Below, piece by piece: positions 40,089-43,813 of a stretch of 64,000 bases of DNA (positions are counted from its first letter, which is position 1; every line of letters starts with the position of its first letter). The position numbers and the translations under genes were made by a program. Under the pieces are notes generated by a model. The model was not told the DNA's origin. It saw only the letters and a program-made list of their open reading frames with translations, and searched no databases. Source of the stretch: an uncultured Planctomycetales bacterium (GTDB lineage Bacteria > Planctomycetota > MHYJ01 > JACPRB01); assembly GCA_964619955.1 (NCBI GenBank), contig CAZUJF010000027.1, positions 1,134 to 65,133 of the forward strand. The letters run 5' to 3'.

Positions 40089-40520
40089 TCAGGTTCCGAT
40101 CCAGTCGACCTGGAGCAGGCCGTCCGCCTCGAGACGCCGAAAGTCCGGATCCCCCGTCACCAGCGGGGCGCCGGCGCGCCGGGCGCTTTCCGCCGCGACC
40201 GCGTCGGCATAGGAGATCGGAAAACGCGCCTTGAGCCGGGCCGCGGCGAGGAGGAGCGTTCCAGGAACGGGGACGCTCCGGACGGGCATGCGGCGGAACT
40301 CCCGGAGGAAGTCCTCCGCATCCGCAAGGCCGCTCTTCTTCGCGAGGATGTAATAGACCTCGCCGAGATTGATGAGGCTCATCAGGAGTTCCAGGCGGCC
40401 CGCTTCGGATTCCTCGAGGAGCCTACGGACCTCGTCGGCCGCCCGGGGCGCCCCTTGGAGCCAGGAGAGGATCGCCCACGAATCAAGGACCTTTCTGGAG
40501 CTCGTGTTTTTCTTCGGCAC
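40089..40520 (-). CDS. PIN-domain (VapC-type) toxin
   Basis: VLDSWA; NLGEVYY; ISYADA..A; LVTGDPDF; GGAGG upstream of GTG. Confidence 0.88.
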   Translation of the reverse strand: MPKKNTSSRKVLDSWAILSWLQGAPRAADEVRRLLEESEAGRLELLMSLINLGEVYYILAKKSGLADAEDFLREFRRMPVRSVPVPGTLLLAAARLKARFPISYADAVAAESARRAGAPLVTGDPDFRRLEADGLLQVDWIGT

Positions 40521-40728
40521 GATGGTCCTCCTTCAAGGCCTTCGTGAGATCGACTCCGGAATACTTTCCCTGCCAGGCACGCCACGCGGAGGAGCTCCGG
40601 GCTTTCCGGAGGACGACGCAGGCGTCCCCGACCTCGATCTCAAGCTCGCTGCCTTCCGTGAAATCCAGCCGCTCACGGACCTGCTGGGGGATGACCACCT
40701 GGCCCTTCGACGAGACGCGAGTCTTCAT
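40483..40728 (-). CDS. AbrB/MazE-fold antitoxin
   Basis: MKTRVSSKGQVVIP..VRERL....G..L; overlaps the PIN gene. Confidence 0.88.
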   Translation of the reverse strand: MKTRVSSKGQVVIPQQVRERLDFTEGSELEIEVGDACVVLRKARSSSAWRAWQGKYSGVDLTKALKEDHRAEEKHELQKGP

Positions 40729-40741
40729 GGCGGCCTCCGAC

Positions 40742-40764
40742 AATCTTACTACTAGTGTAAGATT
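40742..40764. promoter_or_regulatory. Inverted repeat, probable TA autoregulatory operator
   Basis: AATCTTAC-7 bp-GTAAGATT, 13 bp upstream of the antitoxin ATG. Confidence 0.7.
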
Positions 40765-40983
40765 ATCCGAAGTCCGCCTCGAAGTCCAGTCGGATCGTGC
40801 GCGAAGGATCATCTCACTCCTCCACTATATGTAGGAGCTCCGAACTGCGGCCTACAACGGGGGGCGGGAGCCCCGCGGACCGGATCCGCGAACCAGGCGC
40901 CCCGCCCCCCGGACCTCTGCCAAACCGGAGATCTATCTCATCGGAGCGCCGCCCCGGCAGGAACGGCCTCCGCAGTTTGCACG

Positions 40984-41473: not shown

Positions 41474-41575
41474 CCCGCGTTACGTGGCGTAACGTCACGT
41501 TTCAAAACGTAACATCGAATTCCCGGATCCCCGAATCTCCTCCCCGGCTGACGCGCGGCACGGCGCTTGCTCGCT
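41474..41575. repeat. Intergenic repeated element, copy A (43-bp core with palindrome CGTTACG-TGG-CGTAACG)
   Basis: Core 41474-41516 is 39/43 identical to 47331-47373; weaker similarity extends about 60 bp further. Confidence 0.85.
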
Positions 41576-41584
41576 CGTGCGTTG

Positions 41585-42079
41585 ATGAGCGATTTGCCGG
41601 CGCTGGAATCGAGGATCTTCACGATTCGAGGCCATCGGGTCATGCTCGACAGCGACCTGGCCGTCTTGTACGGAACGGATACTCGCAGCCTGAACCAGCA
41701 GGTCCGCCGCAATCTGGATCGCTTTCCGGATGATTTCGCCTTCATTTTGACCGCCAAGGAGGCGGGAAACTTGATGTCACAAACTGTGACATCAAGTTAT
41801 GGCGGAAGGAGGAAGCCTCCCCGGGTATTCACCGAGCACGGAGCCGTGATGCTCGGCAACGTGTTGAGAAGCCGCGTGGCGGTGCGGACGAGCATCGAAG
41901 TGGCACGGGCGTTCGTGCGTCTTCGGATGCTGATCGGCACTCAACGCGAGCTCGCCAAGCGCCTGGATGACCTGGAGCGGAAATACGATCGGCAATTCAA
42001 GTCTGTGTTCGAAGCCATTCGCGCGCTGATGGAGCCGGAGGATGCTCCGCCGAAGGCACGGATCGGATTTCATCCTTGA
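41585..42079 (+). CDS. ORF6N domain-containing DNA-binding protein
   Basis: IFTIRGHRVMLDSDLA.LYG; LNQQVRRNLDRFPDDFAF.L; FTEHGAVML..VLRS; C-terminal RIGF. Confidence 0.88.
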   Translation: MSDLPALESRIFTIRGHRVMLDSDLAVLYGTDTRSLNQQVRRNLDRFPDDFAFILTAKEAGNLMSQTVTSSYGGRRKPPRVFTEHGAVMLGNVLRSRVAVRTSIEVARAFVRLRMLIGTQRELAKRLDDLERKYDRQFKSVFEAIRALMEPEDAPPKARIGFHP

Positions 42080-42231
42080 AGAAGACCGCCCTGCACGCCG
42101 TAAATATCTTCCCCGTGTTTGTCAAAGCTTCGCGCTTGAAGTCTCTCCCAAAGCTGCCCCTCCATCAGGAGAATCATGGTCCCCGGGAGGGGATAGTTAC
42201 CGAGCTCTGGCTTCCCAGCCCAGAGGGGCGC

Positions 42232-43278
42232 CTATGAGAGAGCCACATCGAGCGCTTTTAGAAACTGACGCGTATCTGCATAGTAGTTCGGATAAGCTGC
42301 CCTGAGGAAGCGGGCACCAGGGACCCACACAAGGACGGCATCCATATCCTGCGACTTATTCTTCTCTAGATTGGCAATTGCACGCTGGGCCTCTTCACGA
42401 TCTTTGTACCCAGTTGCTTGGATTGTGCTCGCGGCGACATTTAGCACAAGAAGTAACCATTTGAAGTTTTTCACATTGCGACTTGGAAGGGTTTGAAGGA
42501 CATCAGTCCAACCTTGCAGTCGCTCTCGAACCTTCAAGCTGTTCGCGGCTTCCTTCAACTCATCACGTAGCGCCAGATTATCGATAGGCGTACTGTCGAC
42601 TTGCGGCGTACCTTCGCGCCTGGCCAATGCTGAGCCCATCAACGAGAAAAATCGGCGCCACTCCTGAGGGCCAGCCCCAAACTTCAACGGTTGCCGCGTG
42701 AAGGTCGTGACTGTCTCAACCGCAGTTGCAAAGGCATGCTGCAATCGCGTCCTTAGCTGAATCTCGATTCTCTGCCCATTCCAGGCTTCATGACGTGGAT
42801 CACGAGCCTGGTAGCGCCCAATCAAGTGAATGCCTCTATATCCATCGCCTTTCGGCGCTTGGATATAGTCGTAACATTTCGGGTCAATTTCTGGCCGAGA
42901 ATGGGTCGATTCGTCGCAATACCGTTTACAGACTTCATAGACCGAATCGATGCTTGAGAGTATAGCGCGACACCCACCAAGATCTTGCATCTGTGTCAGC
43001 TTCATGGTGGGCTCACGAACGAGCTTGTTCGTGACAGAGGAGAATCTTTTCAGCCGTTGAGCCACCAGCGCCTTTGATTCAACTCTGCTTGCGCGCTGCC
43101 TCAGACTCATCTGAAACGTGTTGAGAGGAAATGAATGACAGGTGCGCCAATTCTCTACGGTCATAAAGGAAGCGCCGAGGTCGGCTGGAGGAGTTCCGCC
43201 TCTCCACCAAGGTACCAAGAGCTCACCGGCACGATCAATTGCGCCTTTGCCGTACCCACGCTTGACCCATTCGGACAT
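42232..43278 (-). CDS. Fused CapRel-like toxic small alarmone synthetase (RelA/SpoT domain plus C-terminal sensor)
   Basis: AQRLKR; MQDLGGCRA; DYI..PK.DGYRGIH; IEIQLRT.LQHAFATAVE; EWRRFF; C-terminal AYPNYY; visibly AT-richer than its flanks. Confidence 0.75.
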   Translation of the reverse strand: MSEWVKRGYGKGAIDRAGELLVPWWRGGTPPADLGASFMTVENWRTCHSFPLNTFQMSLRQRASRVESKALVAQRLKRFSSVTNKLVREPTMKLTQMQDLGGCRAILSSIDSVYEVCKRYCDESTHSRPEIDPKCYDYIQAPKGDGYRGIHLIGRYQARDPRHEAWNGQRIEIQLRTRLQHAFATAVETVTTFTRQPLKFGAGPQEWRRFFSLMGSALARREGTPQVDSTPIDNLALRDELKEAANSLKVRERLQGWTDVLQTLPSRNVKNFKWLLLVLNVAASTIQATGYKDREEAQRAIANLEKNKSQDMDAVLVWVPGARFLRAAYPNYYADTRQFLKALDVALS

Positions 43279-43318
43279 TCAGGTCAAGTCTACTGCAAGC
43301 ATCTAGCGATATCTACCG

Positions 43319-43813
43319 GTGGTAGGGTCTTGGGGGATCGAGACGCGTATCCTCGCGTTTCGGGGGCAACGCGTCCTGCTGGGCCAGGACTTGGCGCGTC
43401 TCTACCAGGTCCGGGTCAAGGTTCTGAACCAGGCGGTGAAACGCAATGGACGGAGATTCCCCGAGGACTTCGTCTTCCGGCTCACCCCGAACGAAGTCCG
43501 GGAGCTCCGGTCACAATCTGTGACCGCATCCCGGCGCAACGCGCGCCACCTTCCCCTCGCCATCACCGAGCACGGCGCCCTCATGGCCGCCAACGTCCTG
43601 CGCAGCCCCGTGGCGGTCCGGGCGAGCCTGGAAGTCGTGCGCGCCTTCGTCCGTCTCCGCTCGATCATCAGCTCCCATCGGGACCTGGCACGGCGCCTCG
43701 ATGATCTGGAGCGGCACTATGACCGGCAGTTCAAGCCCGTCTTCGACGCCATCCGCGGCCTGATGGAGCCGGAGGAGGACCCACCGAAAACCCGGATCGG
43801 ATTTCACCCCTGA
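43319..43813 (+). CDS. Second ORF6N domain-containing protein
   Basis: ILAFRGQRVLL..DLA.LY; LNQAVKRN..RFPEDFVF.L; TEHGALMAANVLRS; RIGFHP. Confidence 0.88.
   Translation: MVGSWGIETRILAFRGQRVLLGQDLARLYQVRVKVLNQAVKRNGRRFPEDFVFRLTPNEVRELRSQSVTASRRNARHLPLAITEHGALMAANVLRSPVAVRASLEVVRAFVRLRSIISSHRDLARRLDDLERHYDRQFKPVFDAIRGLMEPEEDPPKTRIGFHP

Follow-up and report, generated by a model that had tools for sequence, protein, structure and literature searches.

Why do two paralogous genes carry a perfect DNA palindrome inside their coding sequence, at one and the same codon? The question is raised by ORF6N-1 and ORF6N-2, two ORF6N genes in a stretch of DNA from an uncultured Planctomycetales bacterium (contig CAZUJF010000027.1 of assembly GCA_964619955.1, positions 1,134 to 65,133 of the forward strand); this stretch of 64,000 nucleotides (nt) was analysed as a whole and is called the window below. 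A first-pass annotation, made from the letters alone, had described perfect arms of 14 nt in ORF6N-1 and of 8 nt in ORF6N-2, at the same codon position in both genes, and the sequence bears out all three statements (Table 1). From centre to centre, the palindromes are separated by 1734 nt, which is divisible by 3, and each centre is the first base of the codon after a conserved Gln; palindrome 1 codes N62-S71 (NLMSQTVTSS) of ORF6N-1, and palindrome 2 codes RSQSVT of ORF6N-2. We propose that the palindrome is probably a self-encoded operator, i.e. the stretch of double-stranded DNA that the protein made from the same gene recognises as its cognate site.

Perfect palindromes with a 3-nt centre and arms of at least 14 nt occur 13 times in the 5.6-Mb genome (68.5% GC), and two of these are ORF6N sites. 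Arithmetic from base composition gives an expected number of ~0.1, so that the earlier claim of a 14-bp inverted repeat beyond chance was justified. The 8-nt arms of palindrome 2 are not significant alone, with 186 palindromes of that arm length genome-wide; this site carries weight because of its homologous position and the family-wide pattern described below. Rare codons, TCA and CAA, are found at the sites despite the GC content of the genome. No terminator-like site was found at either window palindrome: the sequences 3′ of the arms are GTTATGG and CATCCCG for palindromes 1 and 2 respectively, and neither palindrome has the GC-rich stem followed by a T run of an intrinsic terminator. Likewise, we found nothing for a promoter explanation of the window sites, and neither window gene has an upstream copy of its palindrome.

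For the family-wide comparison, 334 loci were gathered; besides the genome of the window itself, the sources were 400 genomes from its phylum, a set with one genome for each species in all phyla, viral contigs of IMG/VR, and metagenomes. The ORF6N genes were aligned to the family profile, and the non-redundant set comprised 285 sequences. The palindrome, with the consensus YTTGARRTCRCAA-W-TTGYGAYYTCAAR, is present in nearly all of these ~285 relatives, which come from many phyla as well as from viral contigs and plasmids. Counting distance in bases from the palindrome centre, at least 10 of the 11 positions at distances 2-12 form Watson-Crick pairs in 87% of 158 unique sites (taken from the first 194 loci). 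The first-pass annotation had suggested holding the covariation of the arms in ORF6N coding sequences against synonymous expectation, and the result is clear: when synonymous codons were resampled with the protein fixed, only 0.1% reached at least 10/11 pairs. At other centres in the same open reading frames (ORFs), at least nine pairs occurred in 0.05%. Bases are paired in 93-99% at distances 2-6 and at distances 9-12, in ~85% at 7-8 and in 80% at 13, and pairing has fallen to background by 16.

Twenty members of the family use a second reading frame at the site and encode E-[LV]-[IV]-[TA]-N-C-D, yet they keep the same DNA core, with clear protein homology on both sides of it. In 280/285 sites the base at the centre is A or T, though Leu/Val codons would be conservative substitutes, and the Gln codon is CAA, not CAG, in 91% of genes, even at an unpaired position. 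This conservation at the nucleotide level, together with the second reading frame, indicates that the element is conserved as nucleic acid; the resampling and the core kept in both frames thus uphold the earlier idea that the symmetry itself is under selection. To judge from these alignments, the palindrome is conserved inside the coding sequence as DNA, not as protein, and the family motif 'LRSQxVTS' would be largely a translated DNA site.

What could read such a site? Both window proteins match Pfam PF10543 well above its gathering cut-off of 27.8 bits (ORF6N-1, E 2.2e-29, 102 bits, residues 10-92; ORF6N-2, E 2e-28, 98.9 bits). An AlphaFold2 model of ORF6N-1 built from 120 sequences (mean predicted local distance difference test score, pLDDT, 85; predicted template modelling score, pTM, 0.71) begins with two strands, a helix-turn-helix and a further strand, and the second helix of the helix-turn-helix (protein residues 33-42, i.e. 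model residues 28-37) bears the residues found to covary with the site. A short helix is followed by a loop of pLDDT ~60 that includes the palindrome-coded residues 62-71 and joins the winged helix-turn-helix to the second half of the ORF6N domain. The palindrome had been placed in a linker after the ORF6N domain; this was mistaken, as residues 62-71 fall within the Pfam span. The model continues with a second conserved unit and a 37-residue helix, which probably makes the dimer, and the C-terminus of ORF6N-1 ends RIGFHP.

When every column of the alignment was compared with the variable positions of the site, columns 37, 38, 41 and 42 of the profile hidden Markov model stood out; they lie ~30 residues upstream of the site and have scores that match those of the residues encoded by the site itself. 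In the window proteins, columns 37, 38, 41, 42 and 45 correspond to residues 34, 35, 38, 39 and 42. Specifically, TCACA goes with Ala/Val at column 38 and Gln at column 41, TCGCA with Arg at column 38 and Glu at column 41, TGCCA or TACCA with Arg at column 41, and TTCCA with Asn at column 38 and Lys at column 41; GG at distances 8/7 goes with Lys at column 37, and A-containing or TG pairs at these distances with other residues (Arg, Gly, Ser). These rules are obeyed by 241/253 internal sites. In ORF6N-1, R34/S35/Q38 are paired with the half-site TG-TCACA, as the family combination predicts; in ORF6N-2, whose site is CGG-TCACA, K34 goes with GG at distances 8/7 and V35/Q38 with TCACA. Arg at column 45 is accompanied by C at distance 3 in 331/331 cases, and the only proteins with Asn at this column (locus L322 and two Segatella plasmids) have A at distance 3.

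Two further explanations of this link were considered. On a tree of the 285 non-redundant sequences, computed with the helix and site columns masked, 78/92 changes at distances 4/5 share their branch with a change at column 41 (Fisher p 1.6e-68), and this link is stronger than that to the residues which those bases encode; for distance 7 and column 37 the tree gives p 3e-28. Whole-block transfer fails as the cause because control columns 46, 47, 48, 54, 58, 60 and 61, located between helix and site, give p 0.006-0.28 (first, 238-sequence tree). The switches are recurrent: TCACA to TCGCA with Gln to Glu took place 21 times, TCACA to TGCCA with Gln to Arg 13 times, and TCACA to TTCCA with Gln to Lys 10 times. 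Co-evolution of the helix with the encoded peptide is likewise excluded as the cause, because the link holds at synonymous positions. Where the Arg67 codon is AGG, column 37 has Lys in 104/110 genes; where it is AGA, in 0/29. Among members that use the second frame, Cys is TGC in 10/11 with Glu at column 41 (the eleventh has Phe, TTC) and TGT in 8/9 with Gln, and Lys at column 37 accompanies the Asp codon GAC in 10/10 and GAT in 0/7.

How symmetric a site is also depends on the residue that reads it. At distances 7/8, symmetry is seen in 131/137 sites (96%) with Lys at column 37 versus 84/148 (57%) otherwise (p 1.6e-15), and in 2/18 with Ser; at distances 4/5, it is seen in 62/62 sites with Glu at column 41 versus 25/40 with Arg. 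Since symmetry varies with the reader residue, these data favour two half-sites that are read separately on the duplex over a hairpin. As far as alignments and trees can tell, the bases of the site covary with the putative DNA-reading residues, and neither phylogeny nor the encoded peptide accounts for this. An intragenic operator for the encoded protein, one of the mechanisms that the first-pass annotation had put forward, thus becomes the favoured one, given that bases and recognition helix appear to covary even at synonymous sites.

The remaining ORF6N sequences of this genome, in which PF10543 has four matches, fit the same picture. Three further copies or fragments in the assembly each have a palindrome. 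The copy on the contig labelled C22 (G000:C22:61112-61470), truncated after ~residue 100, reads GCTTTGATGTCGCA-GAT-TGCGACATCAAAGC, with arms perfect over 14 nt; it differs from the ORF6N-1 site by four compensated differences, one of which makes Val into Ala (GTG to GCG), matching TCA to TCG. Relative to ORF6N-1, the helix of this paralogue carries S35R and Q38E, and its site is TCGCA/TGCGA in place of TCACA/TGTGA; all three intact ORF6N genes of the genome obey the rules. Contig C35 has two fragments without the N-terminal helix-turn-helix domain, in which perfect arms of 9 nt and 11 nt are kept. The palindrome 1 site is single-copy in 5.6 Mb even with one mismatch allowed, and the palindrome 2 site has two genomic copies, the other (C35:56254) inside a truncated ORF6N gene, so that each cognate site is confined to ORF6N genes or fragments. 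We also noted that the C35 fragments (G000:C35:56206-57530) flank a gene of 251 aa with a weak pentapeptide-repeat match, a layout that echoes the order ORF6N, cargo, ORF6N of the window, and that the first fragment has the site class of ORF6N-2.

How would such an operator act? In the mechanism that we propose, the N-terminal winged helix-turn-helix and the long helix would yield a dimer whose two recognition helices read the two half-sites. Residue 42 (Arg) would read the C:G pair at distance 3, and residues 35, 38 and 39 would read distances 4-5, with Ala/Val plus Gln specifying TCACA, Arg plus Glu TCGCA, Arg TGCCA/TACCA, and Asn plus Lys TTCCA. Residue 34 would read distances 7-8, Lys being suited to GG and other residues to A-containing or TG pairs. 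The site itself, ~30 codons downstream of the helix, would occupy DNA that codes for a tolerant surface loop. A bound dimer might block RNA polymerase ~190 nt into its own gene, giving tight autoregulation, and/or the protein might be anchored at its own locus in cis; autoregulation by such a roadblock, cis anchoring, or both is our best guess as to function, and one that we hold loosely. With its site inside the ORF, a gene that moves on its own among very different genomic contexts would keep its reader and site linked.

Several observations weigh against a self-encoded operator, at least in this simple form. We infer that the protein binds the site entirely from covariation. Foldseek returned no significant structural relative of the model, the best being weak MerR-family matches with E above 0.2. 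The outer arm of the site (distances 9-12) is 95-97% symmetric and co-changes only with the encoded columns 66 and 73 and with the site-adjacent columns 76-79, and the link to columns 76-79 could stem from short-patch linkage. In addition, 47/262 loci (~18%) have one to three additional such palindromes, located 20-60 nt ahead of the start codon. They are often of another specificity class, and the column-37 rule holds in only 21/52. Because such upstream sites often mismatch the class of the adjacent protein, a picture of one protein and one site is, by this comparison, incomplete. Finally, paralogues in the same genome show no sign of avoiding the same site class (7/83 pairs identical versus 8.8 expected), and selection for non-overlapping specificities therefore lacks support.

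The internal site is the only one present in ~80% of genes. Among the 12 genes with a rule-breaking internal site, a rule-obeying site lies just upstream in five. Upstream palindromes are not closer to the internal arms of their gene than random ones are (5.3 versus 5.2 of 10 positions). At L111, L104, L070 and other loci, two or three different upstream palindromes stand in tandem, each of another specificity class, which suggests cross-regulation among family members.

Could the symmetry serve pairing within a strand, or arise as a by-product? An extruded hairpin or cruciform, in single-stranded DNA (ssDNA) or supercoiled DNA, would mean that intrastrand pairing is selected and that the stem is recognised by ORF6N or by another factor. 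Near-perfect pairing of the arms throughout positions 2-13, freely varying positions included, speaks for this, as does the folding of the window sites as ssDNA (-14.2 kcal/mol, z -9.7, for palindrome 1; -10.2, z -4.2, for palindrome 2); the match of residues to bases would also hold for a protein that reads a stem. We consider it unlikely, given that pairing at distances 7/8 and 4/5 depends on the reader (96% with Lys at column 37 versus 57% otherwise, and 2/18 with Ser), that many viral contigs share an asymmetric site in whose central part two adjacent positions are mismatched (AAATCACA...TGTGACAT), and that the preference for CAA over CAG even where the base is unpaired points to readout of sequence or shape. 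A stem-loop in the sense transcript, which might serve, for instance, in processing, in ribosome pausing or in autoregulation through protein-RNA binding, is highly improbable. The palindrome is transcribed, and the same mRNA might carry the upstream copies in its 5′ untranslated region, but the tolerance of G:U expected of an RNA stem is absent (the 1738 arm pairs include 21 G.T mismatches, 32 A.C and 48 others), a search of Rfam gave no match to the sites at E up to 1, and the covarying residues are predicted to lie on the recognition helix of a helix-turn-helix, which reads the major groove of B-form DNA. As to a by-product of the conserved peptide and codon usage, or plain chance, the SQxVT peptide is indeed conserved, and arms as short as those of ORF6N-2 are not rare alone; the chance of this explanation is negligible in view of the resampling (0.1% versus 87%), the core that survives a change of frame and the rare TCA and CAA codons. 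We rejected it on the synonymous resampling, the second frame and the links at synonymous sites.

The first-pass annotation had also offered a recombination or inversion site and a template-switch hotspot, which would shuffle ORF6N halves or regenerate the symmetry mechanically. Some observations go with this: centre triplets are found in both orientations (AAA, Gln-Asn, and TTT, His-Phe; AAC and GTT), the genome has two loci in which ORF6N copies flank a cargo gene, and ORF6N-1 looks like a mosaic, with DNA of the N-terminal half 70% identical to the C22 copy and 52% to ORF6N-2, and a C-terminal part 75% identical to ORF6N-2. In known serine recombinases the crossover spans 2 bp, and in known tyrosine recombinases the spacer is 6-8 bp long; the centres of the ORF6N sites are odd, 1-3 nt long, and do not fit the inverted-arm crossover of either. 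Nor was a recombinase found as a recurrent neighbour: a phage integrase domain occurs in 2/140 downstream neighbours, which are heterogeneous. Identity between the window paralogues shifts gradually, with no recombination breakpoint, i.e. no sharp step, at the palindrome. A mechanical process would not tie symmetry to a residue of the helix, as is seen here, nor bases to residues 30 codons away. We therefore regard recombination and template switching as very unlikely, and neither proposal could be upheld.

The favoured reading, an operator carried within the gene of its own reader, has parallels. In phage lambda, the iterons of ori-lambda lie inside gene O, where it encodes the linker that follows the N-terminal DNA-binding domain, and site and N-terminal domain co-vary among lambda-related elements. 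The likeness to ORF6N consists in binding sites inside the protein's own gene and in covariation of site and reader. However, lambda has four iterons plus an AT-rich region as a replication origin, whereas ORF6N has a single 27-31-bp palindrome and no sign of an origin; unlike O, ORF6N is mostly a solitary chromosomal gene, and on Segatella plasmids it stands with a separate Rep gene. Other intragenic sites include parS in spo0J/parB, lacO2 in lacZ, galOI in galE and the PurR operator in purR. Operators of the lacO2, galOI and PurR type add to repression together with a promoter-proximal operator, and intragenic sites of other repressors block transcription elongation. As proposed for ORF6N, these are palindromes for dimeric helix-turn-helix proteins in a coding region, and in spo0J and purR this is the protein's own gene. 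In contrast to these single cases, which are usually imperfect and additional to promoter sites, the ORF6N site is near-perfect and family-defining, overrides amino acids and is read in two frames.

With the MerR family and RacA, ORF6N shares a predicted winged helix-turn-helix, a predicted long dimerisation helix and putative binding to a palindrome; the similarity is not significant (E above 0.2), and in ORF6N a second conserved subdomain separates the helix-turn-helix from the long helix. No sequence match to ORF6N was found in the PDB. Many discrete, co-evolved classes of reader and site are also a feature of the repressors and operators of heteroimmune lambdoid phages. There, operators lie in promoters and control lysogeny; the proposed target of ORF6N, unlike theirs, is its own gene, and ORF6N paralogues within a genome show no sign of avoiding each other's class.

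The genes beside ORF6N differ from locus to locus. No conserved downstream partner was found, with no family occurring more than twice among 140 downstream neighbours, and from these heterogeneous neighbours it follows that the ORF6N gene travels alone. Two circular Segatella copri plasmids, NZ_CP152354.1 (2955 bp; locus L335) and NZ_CP152486.1 (4140 bp; L336), are annotated with only a replication initiator (Rep) and an ORF6N gene, and each has one such palindrome, inside the ORF6N gene. Cultured phages gave only four matches, all unannotated. A frameshift occurs at the same spot in three loci from different genomes, L330 (G004:C99), L331 (G202:C5) and L286 (G002:C226), namely in a poly-C run of Arg-Phe-Pro codons (e.g. 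TTCCCCCCCCGG); the palindrome downstream of it is perfect in L331 and L286 and has one mismatch in L330. These frameshifts could be slippage, phase variation or assembly error.

The features of the window are listed in Table 1. Both ORF6N proteins match the PADLOC profile PDC-S05 (E 3.5e-47 for ORF6N-1 and 3.5e-42 for ORF6N-2). A preprint (10.1101/2024.09.26.614923) reports that one PDC-S05 member, annotated with a RhuM domain, reduced T7 and T5 plating in E. coli B by a factor of about 1000; the C-terminal domain of this member is unlike that of the window proteins. The gene between the two ORF6N genes, a PDC-S33 member, is convergent with ORF6N-1 and divergent from ORF6N-2 across 40 nt, and the GC profile puts it at ~50-57% against 68.5% for the genome. 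We treat it as context and assign it no part in the proposed mechanism.

Table 1. Window coordinates of the ORF6N genes, their recognition helices and palindromes, and the gene between them
Feature	Position	Strand	Description
ORF6N-1 gene	41585..42079	+	164 aa from ATG; TTG at 41567 is an alternative start; from the ORF list
Recognition-helix codons of ORF6N-1	41681..41713	+	T33-R-S-L-N-Q-Q-V-R-R-N43; putative readers R34, S35, Q38, Q39, R42
Palindrome 1	41768..41798	n/a	AACTTGATGTCACA-AAC-TGTGACATCAAGTT; perfect 14+3+14; proposed cognate site of the ORF6N-1 dimer
RelA/SpoT-type nucleotidyltransferase gene	42232..43278	-	348 aa; PF04607 E 6e-15; PDC-S33 (PDLC04999) E 4e-104
ORF6N-2 gene	43319..43813	+	164 aa from GTG; start codon uncertain; from the ORF list
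Recognition-helix codons of ORF6N-2	43415..43447	+	V33-K-V-L-N-Q-A-V-K-R-N43; putative readers K34, V35, Q38, A39, R42
Palindrome 2	43508..43526	n/a	CGGTCACA-ATC-TGTGACCG; perfect 8+3+8; proposed cognate site of ORF6N-2

Other repeats were seen nearby. An inverted repeat CTTGACC-N14-GGTCAAG (window 43261-43288) lies over the PDC-S33 start codon, in the 40 nt that separate this gene from ORF6N-2, and ACGT-rich inverted repeats (GTTACGTGGCGTAACGT / ACGTTTCAAAACGTAAC; window 41479-41513), which differ in kind from the ORF6N palindrome, lie between a divergent ssb gene and ORF6N-1. Adjoining ssb are overlapping minus-strand genes for a PIN-domain toxin and a MazE/AbrB-type antitoxin (window 40089-40812); this pair, the two PDC-S05 genes and the PDC-S33 gene look, from their annotation, like a small defence or mobile-element island. 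Elsewhere in the genome, a second family of palindromes (...TCCAGA-CSG-TCTGGA...; C5:147117, C10:148441, C16:28443 and C40:24037) has perfect 14-16-nt arms with covarying outer parts in apparently intergenic positions, and these may be operators of another regulator family. Very long perfect palindromes at C17:69577 and C38:5440, with arms of 35 nt and 20 nt, have the sequence AAGGCAACAAAGCAGACGGG in common.

We found no published description of the ORF6N palindrome in the papers searched that mention ORF6N. A broader proposal, which we offer as a speculation that is more likely wrong than right, is that ORF6N genes are autonomous, self-addressed specificity cassettes, each made up of a reader and its only high-affinity genomic site. 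Reader and site would co-diversify into discrete classes by a residue-to-base code; the diversification and the non-cognate upstream sites would reflect cross-talk or competition, akin to heteroimmunity, among members in hosts, phages and plasmids; self-addressing would be the basis of the single-gene phage defence of PDC-S05; and 'LRSQxVTS' would be a DNA element read as protein.

If the operator reading holds, what passes for a conserved 'protein motif' in a very widespread family would be mainly a DNA site, which bears on the interpretation of motifs, on annotation and on analyses of selection. The family would offer a natural code from helix residues to bases, with dozens of independent switches, of possible use as mutually independent repressor-operator pairs. 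PDC-S05 is a candidate family of single-gene phage defence, and the self-addressing of its protein may provide a first handle on the mechanism.

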